64,000 nucleotides of DNA from a virus (lineage: Duplodnaviria > Heunggongvirae > Uroviricota > Caudoviricetes): the IMG/VR virus record IMGVR_UViG_3300016476_000468, positions 103,913 through 167,912 of that record, one strand, 5' to 3'. The position numbers were made by a program, and so were the translations under genes. Positions 18,756 through 38,531 of this stretch are shown piece by piece; positions within the stretch are counted from its first letter, which is position 1; the number at the start of each line of letters is the position of its first letter. Below the pieces are notes generated by a model. It saw only the letters and a list, made by a program, of their open reading frames with translations, was not told the origin of the DNA and did no database searches.

Positions 18756-20470
18756 TTATCTTTAAGAGCGTTGAATGGAAGAACTTTCTATCTACAGGAA
18801 ACTCTCCAAACAAAGTCCTATTGAATAAGTCCACCACTACACTGATCATCGGTAAGAACGGTGAAGGAAAGAGCACAATCTTAGATGCATTGTGCTTTTC
18901 ATTGTTTGGTAAACCCTTCCGTAACATCAACAAGGGTCAGTTGGTAAATTCTATCAATGGTAAGGGTTGTCTTGTTACCATTGAGTTCTCTATCGGTTCA
19001 CGTAACTACCGAGTAGTCCGTGGCATAAAACCAAACATTTTTGAGATCTATGTTAATGACGAACTGATGAACCAAGATGCAGCTAGTCGTGACTATCAGA
19101 AGGTTCTTGAGCAGCAGATTCTAAAGTTGAACTACAAGACTTTCACGCAGGTTGTTATTCTAGGTTCTGCTTCTTTTGTTCCATTTATGCAGTTACCTTC
19201 TGGTCAACGCAGAGATGTTATCGAAGATATCCTCGATATTCGCATTTTCTCTACGATGAATCAGTTGTTGAAGGAAAAGATCAATGATACCAAAACAGAA
19301 ATTTCACGGATTGAAAATGAGATTGCTACTGCAAAGACTAAAGTCGAAGCACAAACTGCAATTATTAAAACTATCTCGGAAGCAAAGGCAGATAGTGTTA
19401 GATCCATCCAAGCGAAAATCATTAGCAGCACTGAAGAAATTAGCCGAACTCAACAGGAAATTGATGTCCTCGTCGGAGAAATCACAACTCTTAAAAATCA
19501 GACTACAGACAAAGACAAGATCAAAGAAGATCTATCTAAAGCAAACCAACTGCAGCAACGACTCCTACAAAGGGTCGAAACCTGCGAAAGCCATGTCGAA
19601 TTTTTTGGCGAACATGATATCTGCCCAAGCTGCAGTCAAGATATCTCTGAAGAATACAAGGAAAGTATCCTTAAGGATCTTAATCAAAAACTACAAGAAC
19701 AAAACAGCAAGGTTGAAGAACTCAATGTTGTTCATACCAAACTACAAGAGAGACTTAGTTCTATTAACGAAGTTCTTCAAAAGATCTCAGACAAGAACAT
19801 TGAACTCTCTACTAAAAACTCGTCTATCACGTTACTCAATAGACAAATTAAAGAGGCTGAAGTTGAAATCGCCAACATCCAAGCAGACACGACTAATATC
19901 GATGAGGAAAAGAGTAAGCTGAAGCAATTGGCACAAGATGCTGTTGCCAAGATCAATCAGAAGACTGCTCTTCAAGAGCAACGTAACTTAGAAGAAGTCG
20001 CTAACATTCTGCTGAAGGATACTGGTATCAAGACTGCGATCATCCGTGAATACCTGCCGATTATGAACAAACTGATCAACAAGTATCTGAATGCGATGGA
20101 CGCCTACATCCACTTCGAGTTGGATGAGTCTTTCAACGAGATCGTTAAGTCTCGTCATCGTGATGAGTTTACTTACGCCAGTTTCTCTGAAGGTGAGAAG
20201 ATGCGTATTGACTTGGCTATTCTTTTCACTTGGCGTCAGATCGCTAAGATGAAGAACTCTGTCAATACCAACCTGTTGATTCTTGACGAGATCTTTGACT
20301 CAAGTCTTGATACGGCTGGAACAGATTACTTCTTGAATCTGATGAACCAGTTTGGCGAAAACTCAAACATCTTCGTTATCAGTCACAAGGGTGACCAGCT
20401 GTTCGATAAGTTCCGTTCAGTTATTAAGTTTGAAAAACGTAACGACTTCTCGGTTATTGCAGGAAACTAA
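18752..20470 (+). CDS. gp46: recombination ATPase gp46 (Rad50/SbcC-like)
   Basis: Walker A GKNGEGKST, long coiled coil, CPSC zinc hook, signature SEGE, Walker B LLILDE. Confidence 0.85.
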   Translation: MIIFKSVEWKNFLSTGNSPNKVLLNKSTTTLIIGKNGEGKSTILDALCFSLFGKPFRNINKGQLVNSINGKGCLVTIEFSIGSRNYRVVRGIKPNIFEIYVNDELMNQDAASRDYQKVLEQQILKLNYKTFTQVVILGSASFVPFMQLPSGQRRDVIEDILDIRIFSTMNQLLKEKINDTKTEISRIENEIATAKTKVEAQTAIIKTISEAKADSVRSIQAKIISSTEEISRTQQEIDVLVGEITTLKNQTTDKDKIKEDLSKANQLQQRLLQRVETCESHVEFFGEHDICPSCSQDISEEYKESILKDLNQKLQEQNSKVEELNVVHTKLQERLSSINEVLQKISDKNIELSTKNSSITLLNRQIKEAEVEIANIQADTTNIDEEKSKLKQLAQDAVAKINQKTALQEQRNLEEVANILLKDTGIKTAIIREYLPIMNKLINKYLNAMDAYIHFELDESFNEIVKSRHRDEFTYASFSEGEKMRIDLAILFTWRQIAKMKNSVNTNLLILDEIFDSSLDTAGTDYFLNLMNQFGENSNIFVISHKGDQLFDKFRSVIKFEKRNDFSVIAGN

Positions 20471-20530
20471 AGTATTACTTTTACCCTACTGCAAGTAGGG
20501 TATTGACTTTTCGATAGGTTGATGTATAAT
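20470..20530 (+). promoter_or_regulatory. PeSL-like cassette copy 1: GTATTACTTT box, hairpin CCCTACT-GCAA-GTAGGG, promoter TTGACT-N16-TGTATAAT
   Basis: Shared architecture with copies at 25686, 28135, 29436, 38405. Confidence 0.65.
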
Positions 20531-20556
20531 AAAGTCCTGTCGGAAAGGAGTTTGAA

Positions 20557-20760
20557 ATGGCTGAGATCAAAATGGGTACGGTCTACCGAGTAGACATTAT
20601 CGAATCTGAGCGTGGTTGGGGACAGAAGATCGATGAACAAAAGTTCTTCGACAACTTCGAAGAGGCTGCTGCATATATCGAACGATACAATGCGAGTCTC
20701 CCCGCTGGTCCTGCTCCCGACTGGTATATGATGGCTCGTGGTCCTTACAAGGTGAATTGA
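20557..20760 (+). CDS. hypothetical protein (67 aa)
   Basis: ORF with GGAG RBS downstream of early promoter. Confidence 0.45.
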   Translation: MAEIKMGTVYRVDIIESERGWGQKIDEQKFFDNFEEAAAYIERYNASLPAGPAPDWYMMARGPYKVN

Positions 20761-20762
20761 TT

Positions 20763-21071
20763 ATGAAAAAGATTGTTGTTGCTGCAATGGTTGTTGCACT
20801 GTCCTGCTCCGTCTACGCTAAAGGCGGCGGCGGTGGCGGTGGACACGGTGGTGGCGGTGGTCATGCTAGTTCTGGCGCACACTCCAGTTCTTCTGGTGGA
20901 CACGCTAGTTCTGGCGGTGGTGGTAAGGGAACTTCCTCTGGTAAGAGTGCATCGGTTGCACCTGAGCCGAGTCGTTCTTCCACTACAAGTTCGACTAGCA
21001 GCTGGTTCCCTTGGTTTGGTGGCGGTTCTTCCAAGCAAGAAGAAAAGTGTAAAAAAGAGAAAACCTGCTAA
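20763..21071 (+). CDS. small secreted Gly/His/Ser-rich protein with signal peptide
   Basis: MKKIVVAAMVVALSCSVYA signal peptide, then GGGGGGGHGGGGGH... low complexity, C-terminal CKKEKTC. Confidence 0.5.
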   Translation: MKKIVVAAMVVALSCSVYAKGGGGGGGHGGGGGHASSGAHSSSSGGHASSGGGGKGTSSGKSASVAPEPSRSSTTSSTSSWFPWFGGGSSKQEEKCKKEKTC

Positions 21072-21128
21072 AAATTTCCTATATAAAACAGGGTGGGTGG
21101 TCTGCCCTACGATTCTAAGGAGTTTAGA

Positions 21129-22103
21129 ATGAAAACTGGTATATTCATTGGGCGATTCCAGCCTGTTCATCACGGTCATATCCATGCTATTGGTGTGGCT
21201 GCATCCCAAGTACAGAAACTGTACATCCTCATTGGTTCCGCTAACCAATGCCGTAGTATCAAGAATCCTTGGACGTATGAAGAACGCAAGCAAATGCTTT
21301 CGTTGAAACTTCACGCTGAGCGTATCACGAACTATGAAATTATTCCCCTTAACGATTATCGTTATAGCGATACGCAATGGATGTCTGACGTCCGCGCTAC
21401 TATCGAACACTTCAATATGGGTGCACCGATTCTGTTCGGTCACATCAAAGAAGGTAATGATTACCTGAAGTGGTTCCCTGAATTAAAATTTAAGAGCATT
21501 GAGGCTCAATATAATATCGATGCAACTCACATTCGTGAGGAGATGTTTAAGAATGACGACCCTCTGATGCCAGAAACTGTCCGAGGCGACTATGCTTTCT
21601 ACCAAAAAGAAAAACAACTCTTCAAAGATTATCCATTCCCCGAAACTCTCAACTTCAATTGCTCTGATGCGATCCTCGAATGCCAAGGACATGTGCTTCT
21701 CATCCAACGCAAGTTCAGTCCAGGTCGAGGTGCTTGGGCACTTCCAGGAGGTTTTCGCAACCAGCGTGAAACATTTCTTGACTGTGCCATCCGAGAGTTG
21801 ATTGAAGAAACTAACGTGCGAGTCCCTGAGAAAGTTCTCCGTGGCTCTATCGTGAAAACCGAATTGTTCGACAGTCCTCGTCGTTCGTTCGGTATTCCCC
21901 GAAACACCATGGCTGTGTACATGCGTATTAGTCCGAATCCTGACTACTCGCTGCCTCGTGCTAATGGTGCTGACGATGCTGCTCTGTGCAAGTGGGTGCC
22001 ACTTACTGACGCACTGAACAACATCGAGATGTATGATGACCACAAGGACATCATTTCTAAAGTAACAGGTGTTATGTCAATGCCTGCATTTGCAAAACTG
22101 TAA
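21129..22103 (+). CDS. natV: bifunctional NMN adenylyltransferase / Nudix hydrolase (NadM-Nudix, natV-like)
   Basis: GRFQPVHHGH (HxGH NTase motif), Nudix box GGFRNQRETFLDCAIRELIEETN; AAGGAG RBS. Confidence 0.75.
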   Translation: MKTGIFIGRFQPVHHGHIHAIGVAASQVQKLYILIGSANQCRSIKNPWTYEERKQMLSLKLHAERITNYEIIPLNDYRYSDTQWMSDVRATIEHFNMGAPILFGHIKEGNDYLKWFPELKFKSIEAQYNIDATHIREEMFKNDDPLMPETVRGDYAFYQKEKQLFKDYPFPETLNFNCSDAILECQGHVLLIQRKFSPGRGAWALPGGFRNQRETFLDCAIRELIEETNVRVPEKVLRGSIVKTELFDSPRRSFGIPRNTMAVYMRISPNPDYSLPRANGADDAALCKWVPLTDALNNIEMYDDHKDIISKVTGVMSMPAFAKL

Positions 22104-22119
22104 ACGATTAGGATCGTGT

Positions 22120-22413
22120 ATGAACGAACGAATTCAAGAACTTGCTCGTCAGTCTGGTGCATATCATAAAGATGACGACGGTGAAGAAACTAAGATTGCT
22201 GTTCTAATAGGTAAGGAAGTAGAAAAGTTCGCCGAGTTGATTGTTCGGGAATGTATGGAACTTAATAGAAAACAATCCTGGGATCTTACTGGTGTGATTA
22301 TTGATGTTGAAGAAAGCACTGGTTTTGACGAAGTGTGTATGAATACTGTAAAACGAGTAAAGAATTATCTAGCAGGCGATGACTTGCTAAAACATTTTGG
22401 AGTTGAAGAATGA
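22120..22413 (+). CDS. HFGVEE-family small protein, member 1
   Basis: MNERIQELARQSGAY...KFAELIVRECMEL...KHFGVEE. Confidence 0.6.
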   Translation: MNERIQELARQSGAYHKDDDGEETKIAVLIGKEVEKFAELIVRECMELNRKQSWDLTGVIIDVEESTGFDEVCMNTVKRVKNYLAGDDLLKHFGVEE

Positions 22414-22607
22414 TTTTGAAGTATTTTAGAGAACAAATTGAAGGTGGTGCTACAGATAACTTTTTCTATGGCACTGAAATGAATGGTGAAGTTCGCATTG
22501 AGCGTCATCGTGGTAGTCTTGACTCATTCCCCACTGATCTAAAATTTACGAGAATGGTAGGAAGTGTTCCGTTCTTTACTCAAGAACATTTCGGAGTTGA
22601 AGAATGA
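22410..22607 (+). CDS. HFGVEE-family small protein, member 2 (divergent N-terminus)
   Basis: Ends ...QEHFGVEE; ATGA junction. Confidence 0.5.
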   Translation: MILKYFREQIEGGATDNFFYGTEMNGEVRIERHRGSLDSFPTDLKFTRMVGSVPFFTQEHFGVEE

Positions 22608-22831
22608 ACGCTAAAAGAGGTCTACCCCTGGAAAGCATTGCGACAGACCCTGTAAGAATGCGAGCGAGATGTGAAGCATTGGTAATTGCTATGGTAGGCA
22701 AAGATATGGCTGAGAAATGGTGGAATGGCCCAAACAAGGCATTTTGTGATGACACACCAGAACAGATTTATAGTGTAGCACCCAGTGCGGTGTATGCTTA
22801 TCTAATGCGATCAGCCGAAGGAGAATGGTAA
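22604..22831 (+). CDS. hypothetical small protein within array
   Basis: ORF with ATGA junction. Confidence 0.45.
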   Translation: MNAKRGLPLESIATDPVRMRARCEALVIAMVGKDMAEKWWNGPNKAFCDDTPEQIYSVAPSAVYAYLMRSAEGEW

Positions 22832-23004
22832 TGAACCAACGTAAAGTTCACTACATTGATGTGAGCAAAATGTCCGAAAAAGAACTATGTGAAACATTGA
22901 ACATTCCATATGTTCCGTGGTATTGTGATAGTATCTTTTGGGCATTGGCACTGGTTTTTACTGCGCCCAGTATCCTGATTATTACTTTGGAGATATTCAA
23001 ATGA
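22825..23004 (+). CDS. small hydrophobic (membrane) protein, 59 aa
   Basis: C-terminal FWALALVFTAPSILIITL TM segment; ATGA junction into next gene. Confidence 0.35.
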   Translation: MVMNQRKVHYIDVSKMSEKELCETLNIPYVPWYCDSIFWALALVFTAPSILIITLEIFK

Positions 23005-23204
23005 ACAAACGAATTAAAGAACTGCAGTTTCAAGCTGCCGCACAAGTTAATCCGTTGTTGGAAGGTTCTGAGTGGCAACAAGTGTTTGTTGAGAATTTTG
23101 CCGAGTTGATTATCAAAGAAACACTACAGGTTGCTCGTGCTGGTATAGAGTTCGGCGACGGTATGGAAGATGCTGTTTACAAATATTTCGGAGTTGAAGA
23201 ATGA
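23001..23204 (+). CDS. HFGVEE-family small protein, member 3
   Basis: MNKRIKELQFQAAAQ...FAELIIKETLQ...YKYFGVEE. Confidence 0.6.
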   Translation: MNKRIKELQFQAAAQVNPLLEGSEWQQVFVENFAELIIKETLQVARAGIEFGDGMEDAVYKYFGVEE

Positions 23205-23446
23205 ACGAACGAATTAGAGAACTTGCTAGAGAGGCTGGGTTGCCTACATACAACCCCGAAGGTATTCCAACTAAATTAGAAAAGTTCGCCGAGTTGATTG
23301 TTAGGGAATGTATTCGCATTGGCCAAGAAACCAGCAAAGATATTTTCAAAATGTCAAAGAAAGAAGGTGACATTTTTGAATATGAATCACACGGTGCAGA
23401 ACAAGTAGTTGATAATATCAAAGAGCATTTTGGAGTTGAAAAATGA
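23201..23446 (+). CDS. HFGVEE-family small protein, member 4
   Basis: MNERIRELAREAGLP...KFAELIVRECIRIG...KEHFGVEK. Confidence 0.6.
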   Translation: MNERIRELAREAGLPTYNPEGIPTKLEKFAELIVRECIRIGQETSKDIFKMSKKEGDIFEYESHGAEQVVDNIKEHFGVEK

Positions 23447-23541
23447 GCATAAGCGAAACTATCGTCATACTTGCTATGATTTCACTGTTTGCCTTGGTTG
23501 CAGTGGGTGTATATAAGTTGATTGTAAAAGGTTTTCTATGA
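23443..23541 (+). CDS. 32-aa hydrophobic peptide
   Basis: MSISETIVILAMISLFALVAVGVYKLIVKGFL; ATGA overlaps at both ends. Confidence 0.3.
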   Translation: MSISETIVILAMISLFALVAVGVYKLIVKGFL

Positions 23542-23765
23542 ACGAACGAATTAAAGAACTTGCCCAACAGGCTGGATGCAGTATTGATGGAATGGGCTAT
23601 GGCGAAGGTAATGTAGAAAAGTTCGCCGAGTTGATTATTCGGGAATGTATTGGTTGTTGTGAACAAGTTATCAGTGATCCTGTTCCTGAATCCGTGGATA
23701 GTTGGTTAAATGGTGGCGAACAATGTATCCAAGAGATTAAACAGCATTTTGGAGTTGAAAAATGA
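23538..23765 (+). CDS. HFGVEE-family small protein, member 5
   Basis: MNERIKELAQQAGCS...KFAELIIRECIGCC...KQHFGVEK. Confidence 0.6.
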   Translation: MNERIKELAQQAGCSIDGMGYGEGNVEKFAELIIRECIGCCEQVISDPVPESVDSWLNGGEQCIQEIKQHFGVEK

Positions 23766-24013
23766 AAGTTTCCAATCTACGCAAAATCACAGACCCAACT
23801 ACATTTGAACCAAGTGTAGTAGTAGATGTAGAAATCCCAAGAATGACCTTATACGAACTAACTCTAATGAAAGAGGACATTCGTAAAGACATTATCTACA
23901 CACTCGGAGCGGAGTTATTGGGACAGATTGTTGTTCAGATGGGTATGACTGATGAACAAAAGAAAGACCTAATCAAGGACTTGCTGGGAGTGAACAATGA
24001 CACCGAATCCTAA
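23762..24013 (+). CDS. hypothetical small protein
   Basis: ORF with ATGA junction. Confidence 0.45.
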   Translation: MKVSNLRKITDPTTFEPSVVVDVEIPRMTLYELTLMKEDIRKDIIYTLGAELLGQIVVQMGMTDEQKKDLIKDLLGVNNDTES

Positions 24014-24221
24014 AATCCGAGAACTCATTATGAGTATGGGCATTATTCCTGAAAGCGAACACTATGATATCGCTGAACGAGTTATTGAAGAATGTATGGC
24101 AATGTGTAAAACCGCTGTAGGCAACGCTGACTACAACACTGGCAGACTACATTGTTTAGAAAACATCAAAGAACACTTTGGAGTTAAACGATGGCACTTC
24201 GACAACTGCAAAAGTGCTTGA
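23997..24221 (+). CDS. HFGVEE-family small protein, member 6 (divergent)
   Basis: MTPNPKIRELIMSMG...VIEECMAMC...KEHFGVKR. Confidence 0.5.
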   Translation: MTPNPKIRELIMSMGIIPESEHYDIAERVIEECMAMCKTAVGNADYNTGRLHCLENIKEHFGVKRWHFDNCKSA

Positions 24222-24246
24222 CTTTTATTCAATAGTCAGGTATAAT
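24218..24246 (+). promoter_or_regulatory. early promoter TTGACT-N17-GGTATAAT before nadV
   Basis: Consensus -35/-10. Confidence 0.6.
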
Positions 24247-24290
24247 TAACTTACTCCGAGACGGTCTTGGGGAATTTTTAGGAGCTAAAA

Positions 24291-25685
24291 ATGAGCATTT
24301 CAAAATCAATCATTCTAAACACCGACAGCTATAAAGTTAGCATGTTCAAACAGTATCCTGCAGGTACGACTGGTGTTTATTCCTATATTGAATCACGTGG
24401 TGGACGCTATGATCGCACTGTGATGTTCGGTCTCCAAGCCTTCATTAAGGAGTATCTACTTGATCCAATTACCCAAGCCGACATTGATATTGCTGATGAG
24501 ATACTCACTACTCACGGAGAACCCTTCAACCGAGAAGGATGGGAATATATCCTACGTGTCCACGATGGTTATCTCCCAGTCGTTATTCGTGCAGTTCCTG
24601 AGGGTACAGTGGTTCCTGTTAAAAATGTTTTGGCTACAATTGAAAACACGGATCCTGAATGCTATTGGTTGACTACTTATCTGGAAACTGCTCTTCTGCG
24701 TGCAGTCTGGTATCCAACCACTGTGGCTACTCAAAGCTACACCATTCGCAAAGTGATCATCGAATATCTGGAGAAAACTGGTGACCCTAGCCTTATTGAT
24801 TTCAAACTGCACGACTTCGGTGCTCGTGGCGTTTCTTCTATGGAAAGCGCAGGAATTGGCGGTGCTGCCCACTTGGTTAACTTCATGGGTACTGATACCA
24901 TCACTGGTCTTCTGTATGCTCGTGAGTATTACAATGCTGGTATTGCTGCTTTCTCTATCCCTGCCGCAGAACACAGTACCATCACCAGCTGGGGTCGTGA
25001 CAACGAAGTAAAAGCCTATGACAACATGCTTACTCAGTTTGCTAAGCCTGGTAGTATCGTTGCAGTGGTCAGCGATAGCTATGATATCTTCAACGCTGCA
25101 TCTAAACTCTGGGGTGAAGAACTCAAGCAGAAAGTTATTGACAGTGGCGCTACTGTTGTCATCCGTCCAGACTCTGGCGATCCTGATACTGTTTGCCGTA
25201 AACTTGTAGAAATTCTCGGTCAAAAGTTCGGCTACACTGTCAACGATAAAGGATACAAGGTTCTGAACAACGTCCGCATTATCCAAGGTGACGGTGTCAA
25301 TGAACAAACTATCCGCACCATCCTAGGTGGCTTTGCCGCATACGGTTGGAGTGCAGATAACATTGCATTCGGTATGGGTGGTGCTCTGCTCCAACAAGTC
25401 GATCGTGACACCCAGAAGTTCGCAATGAAGTGTTCTGCTGCTTTGATCAACGGTGAGTGGGTTGATGTGCAGAAAGATCCTGTCACTGACTCTGGTAAGA
25501 AGTCTAAGGCTGGTCGTGTGCAACTTTGGGAAAGTGGTGGTGAGTTTATCTCTTCTGTCAATCGTCCCAATACTTGGACTGATCGTGGAACTGCTTGGGC
25601 ACCTGTGCTGCAAGAAGTATTCCGTGACGGTAAACTTGTAACCGAATACACCTTCGAGCAAGTCCGAGCCAACGCTAAAAAGTAA
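24291..25685 (+). CDS. nadV: nicotinamide phosphoribosyltransferase (NAMPT / NadV)
   Basis: 464 aa; NAMPT-like motifs (HDFGARG, GTDT, SIPAAEHST); pairs with NMNAT. Confidence 0.8.
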   Translation: MSISKSIILNTDSYKVSMFKQYPAGTTGVYSYIESRGGRYDRTVMFGLQAFIKEYLLDPITQADIDIADEILTTHGEPFNREGWEYILRVHDGYLPVVIRAVPEGTVVPVKNVLATIENTDPECYWLTTYLETALLRAVWYPTTVATQSYTIRKVIIEYLEKTGDPSLIDFKLHDFGARGVSSMESAGIGGAAHLVNFMGTDTITGLLYAREYYNAGIAAFSIPAAEHSTITSWGRDNEVKAYDNMLTQFAKPGSIVAVVSDSYDIFNAASKLWGEELKQKVIDSGATVVIRPDSGDPDTVCRKLVEILGQKFGYTVNDKGYKVLNNVRIIQGDGVNEQTIRTILGGFAAYGWSADNIAFGMGGALLQQVDRDTQKFAMKCSAALINGEWVDVQKDPVTDSGKKSKAGRVQLWESGGEFISSVNRPNTWTDRGTAWAPVLQEVFRDGKLVTEYTFEQVRANAKK

Positions 25686-25767
25686 TACTTTAGGCTTACA
25701 AAAAAACCCCACCGAGTGTGGGGTTTTTTAACTTAGGTGTTGTCTTTTTACAAAACCTGATGTATAA
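25686..25767 (+). promoter_or_regulatory. PeSL-like cassette copy 2: GTAATACTTT, terminator CCCCAC-CGAG-TGTGGGG-T6, promoter TTGTCT-N17-TGTATAAT
   Basis: Hairpin with U-run, then promoter. Confidence 0.7.
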
Positions 25768-25783
25768 TACTTCTATTGAATCG

Positions 25784-25960
25784 GAGAACATTATGTGGAG
25801 TGATTTTAGCGACTACGAACTAGCCGAGTTGGCTGGTCGCTATGGGTTGGAAGACAACCTAGTTTTTGATTATGAACTCAGTCTGGCAAATCGTGACGAG
25901 ATTGAGAAACTGTTGACTGAATTTGAATGGGAGATTGTAAATGCAGAACGTAGCATCTGA
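25784..25960 (+). CDS. small acidic hypothetical protein
   Basis: ORF with GGAG RBS after promoter. Confidence 0.4.
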   Translation, partial: ENIMWSDFSDYELAELAGRYGLEDNLVFDYELSLANRDEIEKLLTEFEWEIVNAERSI

Positions 25961-28130: not shown

Positions 28131-28134
28131 AACG

Positions 28135-28239
28135 AAAGTGTTACTTTCTGTAAGTTGTTGATTTTACACGGAAAATAACCCTACTTTTTGTGGGGTTATT
28201 CCAAAAAGATGTTGACTTTTTTGCAGATTGATGTATAAT
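28135..28239 (+). promoter_or_regulatory. PeSL-like cassette copy 3: GTGTTACTTT, hairpin AACCCTAC-TTTTTG-TGGGGTT, promoter TTGACT-N16-TGTATAAT
   Basis: Seen in sequence. Confidence 0.65.
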
Positions 28240-29434: not shown

Positions 29435-29435
29435 A

Positions 29436-29515
29436 AAGTAATACCTAAGTAATCCCTTGCAGCTTGTAGGGGATTACAAAAAGGTGTTGACTTTTGGTGC
29501 AACTTGGTGTATAAT
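29436..29515 (+). promoter_or_regulatory. PeSL-like cassette copy 4: GTAATAC, hairpin AATCCC-TTGCAGCTTGTA-GGGGATT, promoter TTGACT-N17-TGTATAAT
   Basis: Seen in sequence. Confidence 0.65.
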
Positions 29516-30044: not shown

Positions 30045-30057
30045 TTGATTCTTTTCC

Positions 30058-30100: not shown

Positions 30101-30127
30101 TTTGATGGTTTTATAATGGAGAAATCT

Positions 30128-30391: not shown

Positions 30392-30443
30392 TCAGCCTAT
30401 GGGCATTCGATGAGTGCCCATTATCGGTTTAATGGAGAGAAAG

Positions 30444-30776: not shown

Positions 30777-30777
30777 T

Positions 30778-31170
30778 ATGTTGTTTTGGAGAAAAACTGC
30801 TGATGACGGTATCGTCGGTAACTACGCTGATGCACTGAAGCGTATTAAAGAACTGGAAACCGAAAACAAGAATCTTTCTTATGCAGTAGATGCATACAAA
30901 AAGCGACTAGAAGATGAGTATTCCAAAGCCAGTTATTCAATTGATTGGAAAAAGATTAATGCTTTTTCTATCGAACGAATGTGGGACAATGGTACCCAAA
31001 AGACTGTGATTGGTTATATGCAACAAGATCCTGTCGTAACTACTGAGGGTGAAGGTGAGTCTAAAGTGACTTATAAAGATGTAGTTCGTGAGTGGACTCT
31101 GTACTGTACCCATGAGGAACACCAACGACTTGTTAAACAATTTAATGAATATGTGAAAGGTAATGAATAA
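30778..31170 (+). CDS. hypothetical protein
   Basis: ORF. Confidence 0.4.
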   Translation: MLFWRKTADDGIVGNYADALKRIKELETENKNLSYAVDAYKKRLEDEYSKASYSIDWKKINAFSIERMWDNGTQKTVIGYMQQDPVVTTEGEGESKVTYKDVVREWTLYCTHEEHQRLVKQFNEYVKGNE

Positions 31171-31418
31171 TGACACTGGCATCTGATGCAGATAAAAAGA
31201 AATTCCACGCAGCTATCGTGGAAATTAGTAACTCAATGACACGTATCGAAGCCGAACGTGACTTGATTAAAGAAACTGTGAAGGATCTTTCTGACAACTT
31301 CCAAGTACCTAAGAAGACTGTTAGCAAGATCGCAAAAACTTACCACAAACAAAACTTCTCTCAAGCTGTTGCTGAGAACGAAGAGTTTGAAGAACTGTAC
31401 GAAAAGGTTACAAAGTAA
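31170..31418 (+). CDS. hypothetical protein
   Basis: ORF, ATGA junction. Confidence 0.4.
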   Translation: MTLASDADKKKFHAAIVEISNSMTRIEAERDLIKETVKDLSDNFQVPKKTVSKIAKTYHKQNFSQAVAENEEFEELYEKVTK

Positions 31419-31594
31419 TGATTAAAATGCTGCTGGCATTTCTCATATCTTTTGGTATCTGTTGGTTCGGTATCAAAGGATACAGAGACTTGACTTTAAA
31501 GGATAAGTGGAGTCTAGCTAAACTTACTGGTTACAGTATCCTTTGTTCTACTCTGGCTATGGTTTTTCTCACTGTGTTTGTTATTTTGTTTTGA
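31418..31594 (+). CDS. small two-TM membrane protein (58 aa)
   Basis: Hydrophobic segments LLAFLISFGICWF and ILCSTLAMVFLTVFVILF. Confidence 0.35.
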   Translation: MIKMLLAFLISFGICWFGIKGYRDLTLKDKWSLAKLTGYSILCSTLAMVFLTVFVILF

Positions 31595-31604
31595 AAGGTA
31601 AATT

Positions 31605-32402
31605 ATGAAAAGCGTTCTGAAAATTTCTGCTCTGGTTGCTGCTGCTGTTCTGGCTACTGGTTGCACTCGTATCGAAACTGGTGAAGTCGGTGTTCGTGTT
31701 GGCTTTGATAAGCAAGTTAAACCTGGAGAGTTGCTCCCTGGATCCTTCAACCAAGTGCTGATCGGTGACGTTCTGACTTTCCCAGTCAAGGATGTTAACG
31801 TTAAACTTGATGATATGACTCCTGTTGCTAAAGACAACAGCACTATGAAAGACCTCGATGCTGTGGTTATCTACAACATCAACCAGCAACAAGTGGCTGA
31901 ACTATACAGTCAAAAGAGTCAAGCGTTCCACGCTAAACATCAAGGCGACATTTACCTGATGTATAACTACATCGTTCAAACTGCTCGTAATGCTATCTAC
32001 AAAGAAGCGCGTAAGTACGAAGCATTGGATATGGCAGATAATCGCCAAGCAATGGAACAAGCTGTTAAAGAAACTATCCAGAAAAGTCTTGCCGAAGAAA
32101 AACTGGATGGCAGTCTTGTTATCAGTCAGGTTCTGATCCGTAACGTTCAACCTGCTGACAGTGTTGTTGCCAGCGCCAACGAATTGGTTCGTGCTAAGAA
32201 CGAACTCAAGCAAAAGGAAGTTGAAGTGAAGACCGCCGAAGCTGAAGCTCGTCGTATGGCGGCACTGAGCAATCAAAGTGCCCAAAGTGTGCAGTTTATG
32301 CAGGCGCAAGCTATGCTGAACATTTCTGAAGGTATTAAGAATGGTAAGGTTCAAACTATCGTTGTTCCTGCTAACTTTAATGCCCTGATGATGCCAAAAT
32401 AA
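31605..32402 (+). CDS. SPFH (band-7/prohibitin)-domain lipoprotein
   Basis: Lipobox LATGC after signal peptide; GEVGVRVGFDKQ...VKDVNVKLDD SPFH-like core; C-terminal coiled coil. Confidence 0.55.
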   Translation: MKSVLKISALVAAAVLATGCTRIETGEVGVRVGFDKQVKPGELLPGSFNQVLIGDVLTFPVKDVNVKLDDMTPVAKDNSTMKDLDAVVIYNINQQQVAELYSQKSQAFHAKHQGDIYLMYNYIVQTARNAIYKEARKYEALDMADNRQAMEQAVKETIQKSLAEEKLDGSLVISQVLIRNVQPADSVVASANELVRAKNELKQKEVEVKTAEAEARRMAALSNQSAQSVQFMQAQAMLNISEGIKNGKVQTIVVPANFNALMMPK

Positions 32403-32426
32403 TTTTAACAAAAAGGAAATTGAATT

Positions 32427-32963
32427 ATGATGACAGTTGGAGATAAGATCGAGAAGTTTGTTGTTACTGGCGTAAACCCAGGAAGCGACCAGTTCTTTGA
32501 TATCACAGAAGAATCTTTCGCAGGTAAGTGGAAGATTATTGTTTACTACCCTAAGGATTTTACTTTCGTATGTCCTACTGAGATTGTTGCTTATGACAAA
32601 CTCTTTCAAGACTTTGCAGACCGTGATGCGGTTCTGTTGACTGGTTCTACAGACAATGAGTTCTGTAAGTTGGCTTGGCAGAAAGCCCACCCTGATCTGG
32701 CTAAGATCAAGCACATTCAGTTTGCTGACACTCAGCGTGAGTGGGACAAATCTCTGATCGACCAGCTTGGTGTGTTCTACAATCCTGCTGGTGCTGCACT
32801 TCGTGCCACTTTCATTGTTGACCCCGACAACGTTATCCAACACGTTACTGTCAACAACCTGAACGTTGGTCGTAGCCCAGAAGAAACCCTGCGTGTTCTT
32901 GACGCACTTCAGACTGGCGAACTGTGCGCTTGCAACCGTACTGTTGGTGGAGAAACTCTATAA
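32427..32963 (+). CDS. peroxiredoxin (AhpC/Prx1 family)
   Basis: FTFVCPTEI peroxidatic Cys motif; C-terminal Cys pair GELCAC. Confidence 0.8.
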   Translation: MMTVGDKIEKFVVTGVNPGSDQFFDITEESFAGKWKIIVYYPKDFTFVCPTEIVAYDKLFQDFADRDAVLLTGSTDNEFCKLAWQKAHPDLAKIKHIQFADTQREWDKSLIDQLGVFYNPAGAALRATFIVDPDNVIQHVTVNNLNVGRSPEETLRVLDALQTGELCACNRTVGGETL

Positions 32964-33469
32964 TGGCATTCATTGACGCTGTAAAACAAGCGTTGCCAGA
33001 TTACGCAAAGGACACCAAGCTAAACTTGGACGCTGTCCTTTTGCGTAGTTCTCTTGATGCTGATGAGGCTATGGGTTGTGCCGTAGCTGCATTGGCTGCA
33101 ACTGGTAACGGTAAACTGCTGGGTGTTTTGCTAGCAGACAATCCTGCAGACGCAAGTGCTGCAATGACTGCTGCAAGTCTAATGGCACAAAACAACGTTT
33201 GGTATCCTTACGTAGAAATGGCAGACGACGAACAACTGAAAGGTCTTCCTGCACAGTTGCGTATGAATGCTATTGCAACGCATGGTGGAACTACCAAAGA
33301 ACGTTTTGAGGCATACTCTCTTGCAGCATCTATCGTAGGTAAGTGCCACTTCTGCGTGAAGGCGCACTACGATGGTTTGAAGAAGATGGGTTATACTGTT
33401 GAACAATTGCGTGACATTGGGCGAATCGCTTCTGTGATGAACGCATGTGCAAAGGTTTTGAACTCTTAA
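32963..33469 (+). CDS. ahpD: AhpD-like alkylhydroperoxidase (carboxymuconolactone decarboxylase family)
   Basis: MAFIDAVKQALPDYAKD... N-terminus; catalytic CHFCVKAH (CxxC-H) motif. Confidence 0.7.
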   Translation: MAFIDAVKQALPDYAKDTKLNLDAVLLRSSLDADEAMGCAVAALAATGNGKLLGVLLADNPADASAAMTAASLMAQNNVWYPYVEMADDEQLKGLPAQLRMNAIATHGGTTKERFEAYSLAASIVGKCHFCVKAHYDGLKKMGYTVEQLRDIGRIASVMNACAKVLNS

Positions 33470-33545
33470 AAATAATTTGCCTGAAACCTAGTTTTCAGGT
33501 AAAATGTTTTATACATAGTAATGTGTTCATTTGAATGGAGAAAAT

Positions 33546-34202
33546 ATGAAACTTAGTAAAGAAACTGTCGGTCTGTTTAAGAACTTTGCTGGCATTAACA
33601 GCAACCTTCTTTTGAAGAGTGGCAACAAGCTGGCTACAATCAGCGCACAGAAAAACGTTATGGCTGACGCAACTGTTAGCGAATCCTTCCCTGACTTTGG
33701 CATCTACGACTTGAATGAGTTCTTGGGTGCAATGTCCTTGTTCGAGGATCCTGAGTTGGACTTCAGCGAGAAGTATGTTACCATCAAGCAAGGTAATATG
33801 AGCATCAAGTATTTCGCTGCTGATGCATCTGTTCTGACTGCTCCCCAAAAGAGCATCACCTTCCCTCAAGCTGAGATTGAGTTCACTATGACTGCAGCAA
33901 TGCTGAATATGGTTCACCGTACTGCATCTGTCTTGCGTGCCTCTGACTTGACTATCGTTGGCGATGGTACGACTGTTACTGCAGTTGTTGGTGACAAGAA
34001 GAACGCCACTGGCAACTCTTTCAGCGAGCCTGTTGGTTCAACCGATAAGACTTTCAAAGTTAACCTGAAAGTAGAAAACCTGAAAATGCTTCCAGGAGAT
34101 TATACAGTTAGCATCTCTAGCAAGAAAATCTCTCGCTTCAAGGGTGCTGGCGATCTAGTTTATTATGTAGCAGTCGAAGCAGATTCCACCTTTGACTTTT
34201 GA
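33546..34202 (+). CDS. gp45: sliding clamp gp45
   Basis: MKLSKETVGLFKNFAGINS...ALEADSTFDF vs recalled T4 gp45 MKLSKDTTALLKNFATINS...ALEADSTHDF. Confidence 0.9.
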   Translation: MKLSKETVGLFKNFAGINSNLLLKSGNKLATISAQKNVMADATVSESFPDFGIYDLNEFLGAMSLFEDPELDFSEKYVTIKQGNMSIKYFAADASVLTAPQKSITFPQAEIEFTMTAAMLNMVHRTASVLRASDLTIVGDGTTVTAVVGDKKNATGNSFSEPVGSTDKTFKVNLKVENLKMLPGDYTVSISSKKISRFKGAGDLVYYVAVEADSTFDF

Positions 34203-34207
34203 TTTAA

Positions 34208-34236
34208 GAGGGAGTATAATAACTCCCTCTCTTTTT
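34208..34236 (+). terminator. terminator hairpin GAGGGAGT-ATAATA-ACTCCCTC + T-run
   Basis: 8-bp stem followed by TCTTTTTGTT. Confidence 0.6.
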
Positions 34237-34250
34237 GTTATGGATGTATT

Positions 34251-34529
34251 ATGAACAAGCGAAAAGATCAAATTGCTAGAGTAGATCGAACGGTTTTACC
34301 GAAGAATGAAATTTACACGACTGACCTTTGGGGTAATAGAGTCACAAAGGTTGTGTGGTGTAGATATCATAAACGGTATGAAGACATTCGATTATTCTAT
34401 AAGGAAAGTTCCTCAAAAGCAAAACACGAGAATCAAGTTCGATCTATGTGTATTGAAGCGTGGGATTTGACCAATGGTAAGATTAATTGGCAACAATCTG
34501 AACCAGCAAGTTTGATAGAATTTATTTGA
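34251..34529 (+). CDS. hypothetical protein
   Basis: ORF. Confidence 0.4.
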   Translation: MNKRKDQIARVDRTVLPKNEIYTTDLWGNRVTKVVWCRYHKRYEDIRLFYKESSSKAKHENQVRSMCIEAWDLTNGKINWQQSEPASLIEFI

Positions 34530-34543
34530 TAGGAATAGTGATT

Positions 34544-35494
34544 ATGGATATTCGTGATGGACAGTTTCTGTGGGTTGAGAAGTATCGCCCTCAAACTATT
34601 GATGATTGTATTCTTCCTGAACGTCTGAAAAAGACTTTCAAGGACTATGTGGCGCAGGGTGAACTGCCACATATGCTACTGTGCGGTACTGCTGGTGTAG
34701 GTAAAACTACTATCGCCAAAGCGCTGTGTAATGAGATTGGCGCAGAGTATATCGTTCTTAACGGCTCTGATACTGGCGGTCATATCGACACTCTGCGAGA
34801 TCTAGTCAAAGGTTTCGCCACTTCTGTTTCCCTTACTGATGCCAAGAAGGTTATCATTATGGATGAGGCAGACTATATGCAGGCAAACTCTACGCAACCT
34901 GCCTTGCGTAACTATATGGAAGAGTTTTCTGCTAACTGCCGTTTCATCTTTACTTGTAACTACAAGCAGAAGATTATTGAACCTCTCCACAGCCGTTGCG
35001 CCGTAATTGAGTTCAAGATCGACTCTGCTGACAAGCCTAAGATCGCTGCTGCATTCTATCGTCGTGCCGTAGATATCCTTACTGCCGAACAGGTAGAGTT
35101 TGACTCTAAGGTTGTAGCCGAACTTATTACCAAACACTTTCCTGACTGGCGTCGTGTGCTGAACGAACTTCAGCGTTACAGCGTTTCTGGTAAGATTGAT
35201 ACTGGTATCCTTGCTAACCTTAGCGAAGACTCTTATAACTCTCTGGTATCGGCTTTAAAGAGTCGTGACTACCCAGCTGTACGTAAGTGGGTTGGTAAGA
35301 ACACTGACATCGATACAATCGAACTGTTCCGTGAGTTGTATGACACTGCCAGCGAAAAGATTGAACCTGCTACGATTCCTAATCTGGTTCTAATCCTCGC
35401 CGACTATCAGTACAAGGCTGCTTTCGTCGCAGACCACGAGCTAAATACTATGGCTGCACTAACCGAAGTTATGATGCAGTGCAAGTTCAAGTGA
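34544..35494 (+). CDS. gp44: clamp loader large subunit gp44 (RFC-like AAA+)
   Basis: WVEKYRP, GTAGVGKTT Walker A, IIMDEAD Walker B, SRC motif. Confidence 0.85.
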   Translation: MDIRDGQFLWVEKYRPQTIDDCILPERLKKTFKDYVAQGELPHMLLCGTAGVGKTTIAKALCNEIGAEYIVLNGSDTGGHIDTLRDLVKGFATSVSLTDAKKVIIMDEADYMQANSTQPALRNYMEEFSANCRFIFTCNYKQKIIEPLHSRCAVIEFKIDSADKPKIAAAFYRRAVDILTAEQVEFDSKVVAELITKHFPDWRRVLNELQRYSVSGKIDTGILANLSEDSYNSLVSALKSRDYPAVRKWVGKNTDIDTIELFRELYDTASEKIEPATIPNLVLILADYQYKAAFVADHELNTMAALTEVMMQCKFK

Positions 35495-35501
35495 GGTTGC
35501 T

Positions 35502-35825
35502 ATGGAAGGATTACTTTTAGTTCTTGGTATTTTTCTAGTAGGTCTTCTTTGTGGATGGAATCTGCGTGAGCACGCCGCACGTAGATTTGTAGATAAATTT
35601 TTGGAAGAGAACCTAGAGGATCTACAACGACAAGCTGGAGAGCATTCGGTTAATATTATCATCGAAAAGCACGGTGAGATGTATTATGTCTTCCAAAAAG
35701 AAGATAGTTCTTTTATGGCACAGGGTAAGACTCGTAGCGAATTAGAAAGCGCACTGGCTAAAAACCATCCAGGAAAACGATTCTTTGCTACTCCAGAAAA
35801 TCTAAAAGAAGTGGGGTTTAAATAA
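35502..35825 (+). CDS. hypothetical protein with N-terminal TM helix
   Basis: ORF. Confidence 0.35.
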   Translation: MEGLLLVLGIFLVGLLCGWNLREHAARRFVDKFLEENLEDLQRQAGEHSVNIIIEKHGEMYYVFQKEDSSFMAQGKTRSELESALAKNHPGKRFFATPENLKEVGFK

Positions 35826-35826
35826 T

Positions 35827-36015
35827 ATGATGAAAATTTTGAGCGAATTCCAAGAGGGAACACGTAACGCTAAAGTTTATAAGACTGCCAATGGCGATTA
35901 TGGTGTTATTGTGTATGATGCCCAAGACGACTTCAATGGTTTTGATTCATTTGATGTATTAGAACTAGCCGAGAATTTTGCAGAAGATTGGGTGACTGGA
36001 CATGTCTCCATTTGA
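35827..36015 (+). CDS. hypothetical small protein
   Basis: ORF. Confidence 0.3.
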   Translation: MMKILSEFQEGTRNAKVYKTANGDYGVIVYDAQDDFNGFDSFDVLELAENFAEDWVTGHVSI

Positions 36016-36385
36016 TTTTGTAAATGCAATCAACTTCAAGAAGAATCTTCTAGCAGAAGACCCGCAAGCAGAAAAGGAGTACGACAAAGGTAAGTGGATC
36101 GTTAACAAAGCATACAGTTATTTTCCAGATACTATTATGCCAGCCAATGCTATGAATGAGCGTTGGTCTATTCCAGCTAAGTGGCAATTTCACTTTTTCC
36201 TAAATACAATTACAAAAGGCAAGCGCCGAAGCGATTGGGTCAAAAAAGAACCTACCACTGAGGCGCTAAAACTTGTAAAAGAGTATTTTGGCTATTCAAG
36301 CGAGAGGGCGAGGGAAGCGTTGAGCATCCTTTCCGAAGAAGACTTGAAAGTGATAGAAGAAAAATTATATAAAGGTGGAAAATAA
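36002..36385 (+). CDS. gp62: clamp loader small subunit gp62-like
   Basis: Position between gp44 and regA; FDFVNAINFKK / YFPDTIMPANAMN resemble T4 gp62 (FFEIIGAINNK / QFPECMPAVYAMN). Confidence 0.55.
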   Translation: MSPFDFVNAINFKKNLLAEDPQAEKEYDKGKWIVNKAYSYFPDTIMPANAMNERWSIPAKWQFHFFLNTITKGKRRSDWVKKEPTTEALKLVKEYFGYSSERAREALSILSEEDLKVIEEKLYKGGK

Positions 36386-36804
36386 TGTCTGTAGAGATGA
36401 TTTACTACGACTGGACGCCCGAGTCCATGCTTGAAGTGACCCTGCCAGAACCTGACAATTTCTTAAAGGTTCGAGAGACTCTTACTCGCATCGGCATCGC
36501 ATCCAGAAAAGAAAACAAATTGTATCAATCCTGCCACATCTTACACAAGCAGGGTAGATATTTCATCGTCCATTTTAAAGAACTATTTGCTTTGGACGGA
36601 AAAGAATCGAATATCACTAGCGGTGATATCGAGAGACGAAACGCTATCGCTGGTTTGCTAGCTGACTGGGATCTATTAAAGATTCTAAATACTCAGCAGG
36701 CAGAACAAAAGGCGTCTCTGTCTCAAATCAAAGTGGTCTCTTACAAAGAAAAAGACCAATGGGAACTTGTGCCAAAATATAATATTGGGAAAAAGGTAAA
36801 ATGA
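36385..36804 (+). CDS. regA: translational repressor RegA
   Basis: FLKVRETLTRIGIASRKENKLYQSCHILHKQGRYFIVHFKE vs T4 FLKVKETLTRMGIANNKDKVLYQSCHILQKKGLYYIVHFKE; WELVPKYNIG. Confidence 0.9.
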   Translation: MSVEMIYYDWTPESMLEVTLPEPDNFLKVRETLTRIGIASRKENKLYQSCHILHKQGRYFIVHFKELFALDGKESNITSGDIERRNAIAGLLADWDLLKILNTQQAEQKASLSQIKVVSYKEKDQWELVPKYNIGKKVK

Positions 36805-36971
36805 TTAAACTTGAATTGACTATTGAAGAAGTAAACACTATTCTGCGTTCACTGGGTAAGCACCCATTTGATGAGATCGCTAACCTAATCGTAAAGATTA
36901 AGCAACAAGGTGAACCACAAGTTGCCGAATTGCAAAAACAACTTGAAGCAGCAAGCGCACCTGCTGCCTAA
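36801..36971 (+). CDS. small hypothetical protein (56 aa)
   Basis: ATGA-coupled ORF after regA. Confidence 0.3.
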   Translation: MIKLELTIEEVNTILRSLGKHPFDEIANLIVKIKQQGEPQVAELQKQLEAASAPAA

Positions 36972-37129
36972 ATAGTATTATCCCTCGGGATGGGAACGTA
37001 AAGACTCTACTACCTTAGGAGCGTCTAAGGCTGGCACTACGATAAGGTGTCCCTGTACCACAGTAAGCAGGATTGACTACGCCGAACGGGTAGTCGCATT
37101 TTATTAACTCGCTTAACAAGGAGAAAACT

Positions 37130-37633
37130 ATGAAGCAATTCATTCCTGCATTCTTTTCGCAAGATGCATTCAAAGATATCGACAAACTCTTTTTGGGTTT
37201 CGATGACCAATTCAAGCGCATGCAAGCACTGCACGACGACTTGACAAAAAACATTCCAAATTATCCTCCATTCAATGTCCGTAAAAACGGTAACACTTAT
37301 ACATTGGAGATCGCTGTTGCTGGTTTCTCACAAAACGAAATCGACATCACAATTGAAGGTGGTAAGCTAATCGTTAAAGGTAACTCTGAGTCTGTAGAAC
37401 CAGATGAGAACTTTGTTTTCAAGGGTATCGCAAACCGTGCATTCACTCGTGCATGGGCTATCGGCGACACTTATGAAGTCAAAGACGCAGAGTTGTTCAA
37501 CGGCATTCTAAAAATTGCACTAGACAAGTTAGTTCCAGAAGAGCAAAAGGCTAAGAAGGTTCCAGTCAAGGCAGGTAAAGGAAAGCAATTCCTTACTGAG
37601 GAGGACAAAGATGAACTTTCTTCTCGCTTGTAA
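37130..37633 (+). CDS. small heat-shock protein (Hsp20/alpha-crystallin family)
   Basis: Alpha-crystallin core PPFNVRKNGNTYTLEIAVAGFSQNEIDITIEGGKLIVKG. Confidence 0.75.
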   Translation: MKQFIPAFFSQDAFKDIDKLFLGFDDQFKRMQALHDDLTKNIPNYPPFNVRKNGNTYTLEIAVAGFSQNEIDITIEGGKLIVKGNSESVEPDENFVFKGIANRAFTRAWAIGDTYEVKDAELFNGILKIALDKLVPEEQKAKKVPVKAGKGKQFLTEEDKDELSSRL

Positions 37634-37902
37634 AGAACTGTTTCGTGATGTTTTTCGTGATAGAACAACTACGCTAGAGCAATTTATTAAGTCACGTAAT
37701 CCTCAAACTGCAAATCAAGTAGAGCAGCTAGAGCGTGAGTATTACGCTAAACGTCAAAGGGGTACAATGGTATGAACCAATGGATTCCAATGACAGACGA
37801 GGATTGGGATTGGGTGAACGGAAAGGTTCCGCCAAACCCTGCTGACAAAAAATAAATCGTCGTAGAAACTTAGGGAGGCTTTTGTCTCCCTAAATAATTT
37901 CT

Positions 37903-38106
37903 ATGATGAGAGCAAAACTATCACCCAACCTAATATCCTTCGTCTTAGTGCGAAGAGGGGATTGGTATCTCAAAGTGTCTGTTTACAAAAACAAATACAT
38001 TATGGTCTTAGCCCAGCATGTCTTTGATATGGAACATACTATTATTCGTTTCTTCTTGGACCAAAACCAAGCAGCTGATTTTATTGAACAACTCGTAGAG
38101 GCATAA
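37903..38106 (+). CDS. hypothetical protein
   Basis: ORF preceded by hairpin TAGGGAG...CTCCCTA and CTAAATAAT motif. Confidence 0.35.
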   Translation: MMRAKLSPNLISFVLVRRGDWYLKVSVYKNKYIMVLAQHVFDMEHTIIRFFLDQNQAADFIEQLVEA

Positions 38107-38400
38107 ATGGATATTAAAGTTTTTAAATTGATCAACGGTGAAGAAGTGATCAGTGAAGTTAGTTCTGGCTCTGAAGCTGGATACTTCTTAGAGAATCCTG
38201 CATCAATTCAACTACAACAAACTGCAAATGGCGTCGGTGTGGGTATTGCCCCATATATGCCATACGCTAAGGGTAAGGTTTATCTTTACAAACACTCAAT
38301 CGCCAGTGAAGCTACTGCTGACGAAAAGATGGAAAATGAATATCGTAGAATTTTCGGCTCAGGTATTCAAGTAGTCTCGGCTGGCTCCATCAAGCTGTAA
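38107..38400 (+). CDS. hypothetical protein
   Basis: ORF. Confidence 0.4.
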   Translation: MDIKVFKLINGEEVISEVSSGSEAGYFLENPASIQLQQTANGVGVGIAPYMPYAKGKVYLYKHSIASEATADEKMENEYRRIFGSGIQVVSAGSIKL

Positions 38401-38404
38401 TCCA

Positions 38405-38531
38405 AAAGTATTACTTTTTAACCCTCCTTCTAGGAGGGTTTTTTCATTGTAAAATCAACAACTTACAATCCCCTCAAACCTGTAGGGTTACTCCAGATAC
38501 CTGTTGACTTTTTTGCAGATTAGGGTATAAT
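38405..38531 (+). promoter_or_regulatory. PeSL-like cassette copy 5: GTATTACTTT, terminator AACCCTCC-TTCTA-GGAGGGTT-T6, promoter TTGACT-N16-GGGTATAAT
   Basis: Seen in sequence. Confidence 0.7.

Follow-up and report, generated by a model that had tools for sequence, protein, structure and literature searches.

The window, i.e. the whole stretch of DNA analysed here, comprises 64,000 nucleotides of IMG/VR virus record IMGVR_UViG_3300016476_000468 (positions 103,913 to 167,912). Judged from its gene content, its source is an uncultured T4-like myovirus. Every gene from about 0.2 kb onward lies on the + strand, and the T4-type gene set consists of gp47, gp46, gp45, gp44, gp62, RegA and ligase. 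The subject of this work is a group of five intergenic cassettes, designated B1 to B5, which all lie in the gp46-to-ligase interval (20.4-38.5 kb) and have the same order of parts: a box at the stop codon of the preceding gene, a GC hairpin and a promoter. Products encoded near the cassettes also include a CobS-type AAA protein, an Ala/Lys-rich (AK-rich) protein, a dATP/dGTP diphosphohydrolase-like protein, Band7, AhpC and CMD proteins, the gp45 clamp, the gp44/gp62 clamp loader, RegA, Hsp20 and an ATP-dependent ligase. A 729-aa open reading frame (ORF) without a Pfam match is presumably cobT, the label given to it in a preliminary description of this DNA. The same description had proposed a shared architecture for at least five intergenic regions, and the five that it listed were found where it had placed them. 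The cassettes and the related copies are as follows.

20469-20530, + strand: cassette B1, 3' of gp46; box 20469-20481 overlapping the TAA stop, hairpin 20482-20502 without a T-run, -35 at 20503-20508, -10 at 20525-20530
25679-25768, + strand: cassette B2, 3' of nadV; box 25679-25691 with the nadV stop (25683-25685) inside it, predicted intrinsic terminator 25701-25729 including a T6 run, -35 (TTGTCT) at 25740-25745, -10 at 25763-25768
28135-28239, + strand: cassette B3, 3' of cobT; box 28135-28147 with one mismatch, integration host factor (IHF)-consensus element 28149-28168 in reverse orientation, hairpin 28170-28202, -35 at 28212-28217, -10 at 28234-28239
29435-29515, + strand: cassette B4, 3' of cobS; box 29435-29447 with two mismatches, hairpin 29449-29477 with a 13-bp stem and without a T-run, -35 at 29487-29492, -10 at 29510-29515
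38405-38531, + strand: cassette B5, 3' of a 97-aa ORF; exact box 38405-38417, predicted intrinsic terminator 38420-38440 followed by a T6 run, IHF-consensus element 38448-38467 in forward orientation, second hairpin 38471-38487, -35 at 38504-38509, -10 at 38526-38531
24218-24272, + strand: half cassette; promoter 24218-24246 overlapping the end of a small ORF, then a weak hairpin 24254-24272
34192-34230, + strand: compact cassette at the end of the gp45 clamp gene; promoter 34192-34220, with its -10 inside the loop of hairpin 34207-34230 and a T-run after it
12917-12945, + strand: promoter-only copy, TTGATT-N17-TATAAT, with a spacer (TTTTTGCA) similar to those of B3 and B5

The box is a perfect 13-bp palindrome, AAAGTAWTACTTT, with exact copies at 20469, 25679 and 38405 and near copies at 28135 (one mismatch) and 29435 (two mismatches). 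Three exact copies compare with 0.007 expected from base composition and 0.01 in Markov shuffles. It always lies at the end of a gene, overlapping the stop codon or 0-5 nt behind it: it overlaps the gp46 stop, contains the nadV stop (TAA), abuts the cobS stop and lies 4 nt past the stops of cobT and the 97-aa ORF. The hairpin follows after 0-26 nt, and its end is separated from the -35 box by 0-63 nt, a wider range than the 10-60 nt proposed earlier. The hairpins are stable, at -9 to -18 kcal/mol, and the folded segments have z-scores between -2.5 and -5. As had been described, two hairpins end in a T6 run; these are B2 and the first hairpin of B5, which are canonical intrinsic terminators by sequence. 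The CCCT/AGGG core attributed to all five does not hold for B2, where it is CCCCAC/GTGGGG. Searches of the window against Rfam (at the gathering threshold) and with ARAGORN gave no matches.

The cassette promoter consists of TTGACT (TTGTCT once), a spacer of 16-17 nt and TATAAT, and it is always on the coding strand. The pattern TTG[A/T]CT-N16/17-TATAAT occurs seven times on the + strand of the window and never on the - strand (0.06 expected). GTG precedes the promoter in most copies and an A-run does so often, and a GGAG-type Shine-Dalgarno (SD) sequence with ATG follows 25-45 nt downstream. The -10 box had been called extended; its TG, at -14/-13, directly abuts TATAAT and is therefore not a canonical TGn extended -10. 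Both promoter-only copies reported before (12917-12945 and 24218-24246) were seen, and the list proved incomplete, with further copies at 18209, 34192, 48475, 49872, 52585 and 55749. In a repeat search, the hairpin arm together with the promoter formed the largest repeat family of the region (four copies of 53 nt, 62-83% identity), within which B3 and B5, 10 kb apart, are 83% identical across 53 nt.

The phage has no near DNA match among deposited phages (megablast of 20 kb against INPHARED, 50,697 records). The best cultured relatives by gp46 are Methylophilales phage Melnitz and cyanomyoviruses, at only about 49% identity, and gp46 identifies hundreds of relatives in IMG/VR with identities from 90% down to 49%. 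Neither cassettes after gp46 nor the cassette motifs were present in the 27 kb inspected of Melnitz, the nearest cultured relative. Among the uncultured relatives, a hairpin and promoter lie directly 3' of gp46 in about 35 of 39. The cobT-cobS spacer and the spacer after the 97-aa ORF carry terminator(s) and a promoter throughout the clade, with differing hairpin sequences. RNAalifold found little covariation in the cobT-cobS hairpins, in an alignment that is partly out of register, and the stems are mostly conserved in sequence (CCCTAC/GTAGGG). In relatives, each of the 17 exact box copies has a stop codon on one side and a promoter on the other, nearly always with a hairpin before the promoter. 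Compact hairpin-in-promoter cassettes occur 3' of nadV in contigs L404, L405, L428, L452, L460, L464 and L467; in many contigs besides the window, the 5' arm of a CCCC/GGGG hairpin contains the -35, and its 3' arm is directly followed by the -10.

These cassettes resemble the PeSLs (promoter early stem-loops) of cultured T4-like phages, i.e. RB49/phi1, T4/PST and KVP40/nt-1 (Arbiol et al. 2010, PMC2839356; passages of Comeau et al. 2014, PMC4122927). The defining parts of a PeSL are a stem-loop and, immediately behind it, a sigma70-like early promoter, followed by an AT-rich lead and SD/ATG; a genome carries repeated copies, which cluster in hyperplastic regions and adjoin insertions, deletions or replacements between close relatives (PMC2839356; passages of PMC4122927). 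Recombination of neighbouring copies has been demonstrated by inverse PCR, and terminator activity and mini-circles have been shown experimentally in RB49 (PMC2839356; passages of PMC4122927). The PeSL-like anatomy proposed in the preliminary description is present in every sequence-level respect. A stem-loop occurs in five of the five cassettes, a sigma70-like promoter is aimed at the downstream gene with its SD and start codon, and several mutually similar copies are present in the genome. The cassettes also lie in hyperplastic or indel-adjacent positions, with the caveat that cobT and cobS are conserved in place. Further likenesses are the A-rich lead, the near-consensus promoter, the clustering between conserved replication genes, the gain or loss of blocks between copies and the promoter-only half elements. 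Unlike the PeSL phages, this phage belongs to an uncultured clade whose protein identity with the closest cultured T4-like phages is about 49%, and several of its cassettes flank conserved rather than variable genes. It also carries the palindromic stop-codon box and the IHF-consensus element in either orientation; the words "IHF" and "palindrom" have no occurrence in the text of PMC2839356, and the passages of PMC4122927 consulted mention neither an IHF site nor a palindromic box. Whereas PeSL activity in RB49 is experimental, the terminator and promoter functions of the cassettes described here are predicted.

A clear association of cassettes with variable genes involves the NAD-salvage genes natV and nadV. 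The genes concerned are listed below.

17383-20470, + strand: gp47-like and gp46-like (Rad50-like) recombination nuclease subunits
20531-25678, + strand: block between B1 and B2, with small ORFs, natV, a family of small paralogous ORFs and nadV
21093-22103, + strand: natV, NMNAT-Nudix protein, GTG start as listed
24291-25685, + strand: nadV, nicotinamide phosphoribosyltransferase

The gene order of the clade is gp47, gp46, a variable segment of 0.1-1.3 kb, cobT, cobS, the AK-rich gene and two more genes. Among the gp46 loci, natV-nadV lies between gp46 and cobT only in the window and its closest relatives, L001 and L036; a few further genomes with this arrangement were found beyond the gp46 loci. 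Most relatives have a single cassette after gp46, followed by a small acidic ORF or by cobT directly, and the single cassette of one such "empty" site (L020) is clearly a homologue of B2. Contig 3300043410_000565 has gp46 next to cobT, with natV-nadV at a distance of more than 100 kb. In the window the genes have a box on either flank (B1 and B2), and in L423 they lie between two copies of a 26-nt box repeat, TAAT(A/C)CTTTAGGTTTACTTTTTAAAG. The natV-nadV block looks like an insertion between cassettes. The preliminary description held that the cassettes bracket shuffled genes, and for natV-nadV this agrees with its absence from this site in most relatives and its different location in other genomes. 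It agrees also with the variable genes that follow B2, the promoter at 34192 and B5: a cassette-bounded sequence of 3.2 kb substitutes the sequence directly behind the B2 box in L001, the 92-aa gene after the promoter at 34192 is absent or replaced in relatives (absent from both close ones), and two small genes after B5 are missing from both close relatives. Between the 97-aa ORF and the ligase region, members of the clade have anything from about 100 bp to over 1 kb. The half cassette at 24218-24272 lies at the right edge of a 2.2-kb block of small ORFs that is missing from the two close relatives. By a rough hand count, indels occur at 5 of 9 promoter junctions and at 10 of 59 other junctions (Fisher one-sided p = 0.02).

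Two observations concern the surroundings of natV. The small paralogous ORFs at 22103-24290 form a tandem family with conserved 5' ends (ATGAACGAACGAATTAAAGAACT) and 3' ends (CATTTTGGAGTTGAAAAATGA) and overlapping stop and start codons; of the close relatives compared, contig 3300016667_000188 alone has the whole block. At about 21060-21100, and upstream of natV in L423, L434, L457-L467 and L476, there is a late-promoter-like motif (TATATAAA or CTAAATAG) followed by a short hairpin, e.g. GAGTCTGGTAGTCAGACTC. The conservation of this motif and hairpin suggests that natV may be served by a late-type promoter and preceded by a 5' stem-loop. Its true start may be another codon than the GTG listed at 21093.

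Several findings weigh against exchange driven by the cassettes. Although cassettes bracket cobT, cobS and the AK-rich gene, these genes hold their position in more than 50 of 80 relatives. Here the earlier proposal of shuffled genes is not supported, and such in-place conservation is what its authors had named as speaking against it; cassettes alone do not make a gene mobile. In comparison with the two closest genomes, 9-10 of about 15 indels have no early-promoter cassette at either end, and one junction of the 2.2-kb small-ORF block lies inside a ribosome-binding site. Window positions 21430-25230 are 100% identical over 3.8 kb to L402 (IMGVR_UViG_3300016667_000188), with flanks of about 80% identity on the left and 93% on the right, and both breakpoints fall inside coding sequence, in natV and nadV. 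From this identity pattern, the tract is a recent homologous exchange between two related phages, and since it ends within genes, ordinary homologous recombination acts anywhere. The cassettes would therefore be favoured joints and not the sole ones, and many may be just conserved regulatory punctuation. A separate point against the PeSL-type explanation as a whole is that the hairpins of three of the five cassettes (B1, B3 and B4) lack a T-run.

The second element not mentioned in the PeSL texts cited above, nor in the preliminary description of this DNA, is a 20-bp sequence, TGTAAAATCAACAACTTACA, found in B5 (38448-38467, + strand) and as its exact reverse complement in B3 (28149-28168, - strand). 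It includes A-ATCAA-CAAC-TTA after an A-tract. The core AATCAACAACTTA behind the A-tract matches the IHF consensus. This consensus is WATCAANNNNTTR with a 5' A/T tract, as cited in PMC1874591. The element is interpreted as a site where a DNA-bending protein of the host would bind. Related contigs totalling 2.09 Mb contain 89 copies of AATCAANNNCTTA, in nearly equal orientations (47 and 42), whereas composition-matched shuffled patterns average 10.6. Of the non-redundant copies, 49 of 82 lie no more than 200 nt upstream of a predicted early promoter (background 6.8%), and many relatives have the TAA stop of cobT inside the element. Its ends are inverted (TGTAA/TTACA) and can fold as a hairpin, so that a structural role is possible. 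With IHF sites it shares the consensus match, the occurrence in either orientation and the position between hairpins at gene 3' ends; it differs in that the N positions are conserved too (YAA) and in its inverted ends.

The 18-mer of this element was compared with 185,579 bacterial and archaeal genomes and gave more than 120 matches in many phyla, with about 17 estimated by chance. The matches, being spread over many phyla, gave no clue to the phage host. They lie beside tRNA genes and at the centre of repeats like miniature inverted-repeat transposable elements (MITEs) in metagenome-assembled genomes (MAGs) of Thiomargarita/Beggiatoa, and in Acinetobacter the 18-mer is read as lying in the end of a Tn7-like transposon. 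Such contexts (tRNA genes, MITE-like repeats and transposon ends) are places where DNA-bending sites are expected. The MITE-like repeat is about 130 bp long, has terminal inverted repeats (GAGGCTGTAAAAGAAC...) with the 18-mer GTAAAATCAACAACTTAC at the centre and is present in many copies in giant sulfur bacteria. Its sources are Thiomargarita MAG DYNO01 (L282, L289, L297, L321, L329, L358, L360 and others) and Ca. Albibeggiatoa (L311, L335, L352).

The box has been followed in relatives as well. An extended form, with a third half-site (TACTTT) 12 bp away, i.e. about one helical turn, was found 3' of at least five different genes in IMG/VR, and the box remains at the nadV stop codon in other genomic contexts. 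Its arms are invariant and its centre base is free (W), no compensatory changes were seen, and it is exact even where the adjoining terminator has been replaced by an unrelated hairpin. The invariant arms, the exactness beside replaced hairpins and the third half-site argue for sequence-specific recognition. At the same sites, other lineages have AAGT/ACTT-armed palindromes with centres of 3, 4 or 10 nt, a variable spacing that fits a small hairpin better than a rigid dimer site, and in some lineages tandem CCCTCTAAA repeats replace the box. The right half of the box is similar to the TTTACTTTT -35 region of promoters in relatives. The candidate functions can be ranked as a protein-binding or junction site, then a small hairpin of the 3' untranslated region, then a remnant of a -35 region. 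A scan of IMG/VR with a 14-mer of the box gave, among the matches listed, almost only single copies, which are taken as chance.

Other functions of the box were considered and rejected: a promoter (no -10 lies at a fixed distance), a phased activator site (the centres lie at about -62, -81, -90, -105 and -127, which are hand-counted estimates), an all-frame stop module (there is one stop only) and a RegA site (the position is wrong, and the IHF-type element also occurs in both orientations). After the homologue of the 97-aa ORF, contigs L216, L218, L220, L224 and L226 have tandem CCCTCTAAA(G) and other C-rich, G-poor tracts. C-rich tracts of this kind, replacing the box just upstream of a terminator, could be Rho-utilisation-like sequences.

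Taken together, the cassettes are best explained as PeSL-type composite regulatory cassettes of an uncultured T4-like myovirus, with a probability of roughly 0.7. A regulatory role is very likely, and a contributory role in moving gene blocks is plausible, at about even odds. The GC hairpin would close the upstream transcription unit, with the two T-run hairpins (B2 and B5) as predicted intrinsic terminators and the three others probably acting as attenuators or 3'-end stabilisers. Transcription would restart at once from the near-consensus promoter, whose host-sigma70 activity and early timing are deduced from its sequence; nadV, the small acidic ORF with cobT, cobS and the following genes would thus be separate early units. 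The cassettes also place about 50-130 bp of common sequence between unrelated genes, with the box as left edge and the promoter as right edge. Because this sequence recurs, the recombination machinery of the phage could exchange, insert or delete whole blocks. The box AAAGTAWTACTTT is taken as a sequence-specific protein-binding or junction site and the 20-bp element as the putative bend site.

The cassettes might instead be purely regulatory, being alike through a shared RNA polymerase and common descent, with nearby gain and loss reflecting generic recombination that survives only in non-essential intergenic DNA. The fixed position of cobT and cobS with cassettes on either side, the exchange breakpoints within genes, the many indels away from cassettes and the junction inside a ribosome-binding site all fit this explanation. 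It accounts poorly for the same box on both natV-nadV flanks and 3' of at least five unrelated genes, for the 83% identity of B3 and B5 over 53 nt at a distance of 10 kb, and for the approximately 3-fold enrichment of indels at promoter junctions; it is possible, though on the improbable side. A second explanation starts from the box, which would be an operator-like site where a phage or host DNA-binding protein blocks or modulates read-through as early genes end; the location of the box at the edges of modules would then be secondary. Stoperators, the repressor sites of phage L5 in cluster A mycobacteriophages, are 13 bp long, asymmetric and in one orientation, and number about 24-30 per genome in temperate phages with a known repressor. 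The box is likewise a repeated 13-bp site in short intergenic spaces at or near stop codons, and its invariant arms with a free centre and no compensatory changes, its exactness beside replaced hairpins and its third half-site 12 bp off would suit an operator. Unlike stoperators it is palindromic, occurs just five times in 64 kb and in every case together with a hairpin and promoter; its AAGT/ACTT-armed counterparts with centres of 3, 4 and 10 nt suit a small hairpin, its right half resembles the TTTACTTTT -35 region, and no candidate binding protein or repressor was found for it. An operator-like role is accordingly rated as unlikely.

A selfish origin is also conceivable, in which box, IHF-like element and hairpins form a repeat of the MITE type or of the repetitive extragenic palindromic (REP) or RIP type and the promoters are incidental. 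The RIP elements of E. coli, a form of bacterial interspersed mosaic element (BIME), have two inverted copies of a palindromic unit around an IHF site and a high copy number. B5 has the same succession of hairpin, IHF-consensus element and hairpin, and the same 18-mer centres the Thiomargarita/Beggiatoa MITE-like repeats and lies in a putative Tn7-like end in Acinetobacter. In B5 the element lies between two different hairpins and in B3 before a single one; copy number is low, there are no terminal inverted repeats or target duplications, the modules vary in combination and order, and copies at orthologous sites are inherited vertically. This explanation is considered very improbable. Within the PeSL-type explanation, there is a slight chance that a phage or host protein recognises the box together with the IHF-type bend site as a dedicated joint for recombination.

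Other variable or unusual features were observed elsewhere in the window. Before the Hsp20 gene (37130-37633), positions 37073-37135 (+ strand) match the ROSE_3 RNA thermometer family below threshold (23.7 bits, where the gathering score is 43; E = 0.01), and the match spans the SD and start codon of this phage small heat-shock protein gene. The 158-nt spacer before Hsp20 is partly variable in relatives (36997-37098), and its fold is no stabler than shuffles (z = -0.23). A block at 31418-33469 with a 58-aa ORF and genes for Band7/SPFH, AhpC-type peroxiredoxin and CMD (AhpD-like) proteins is present in L202 and not in L036/L201; at either end of the block the junction falls in an A-rich stop-codon context (AAAGTAAT / AAAATAAT). 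A 2OG-Fe(II) oxygenase gene at 45348-45947 is missing from both closest relatives and directly follows an 834-aa ORF, which from its position we presume to be the gp43 DNA polymerase.

Practical value is limited pending a cultured member of the clade or a reporter system. The box and the IHF-type site provide testable handles for distinguishing site-directed from merely homology-driven exchange. If they do form a dedicated joint, a lytic T4-like clade would capture and move blocks through it, much as integrons capture gene cassettes, and the box would travel with the 3' end of the captured gene, at times supplying its stop codon. Few concrete mechanisms have been put forward for the swapping of accessory genes in T4-like phages; PeSLs are among them, and they have so far been described only from cultured phages of enterobacteria and vibrios. 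The cassettes described here would extend them to a large uncultured clade represented by hundreds of IMG/VR contigs, with a clear case in the NAD-salvage block, which lies between two cassettes and has "empty" sites and alternative locations in relatives.

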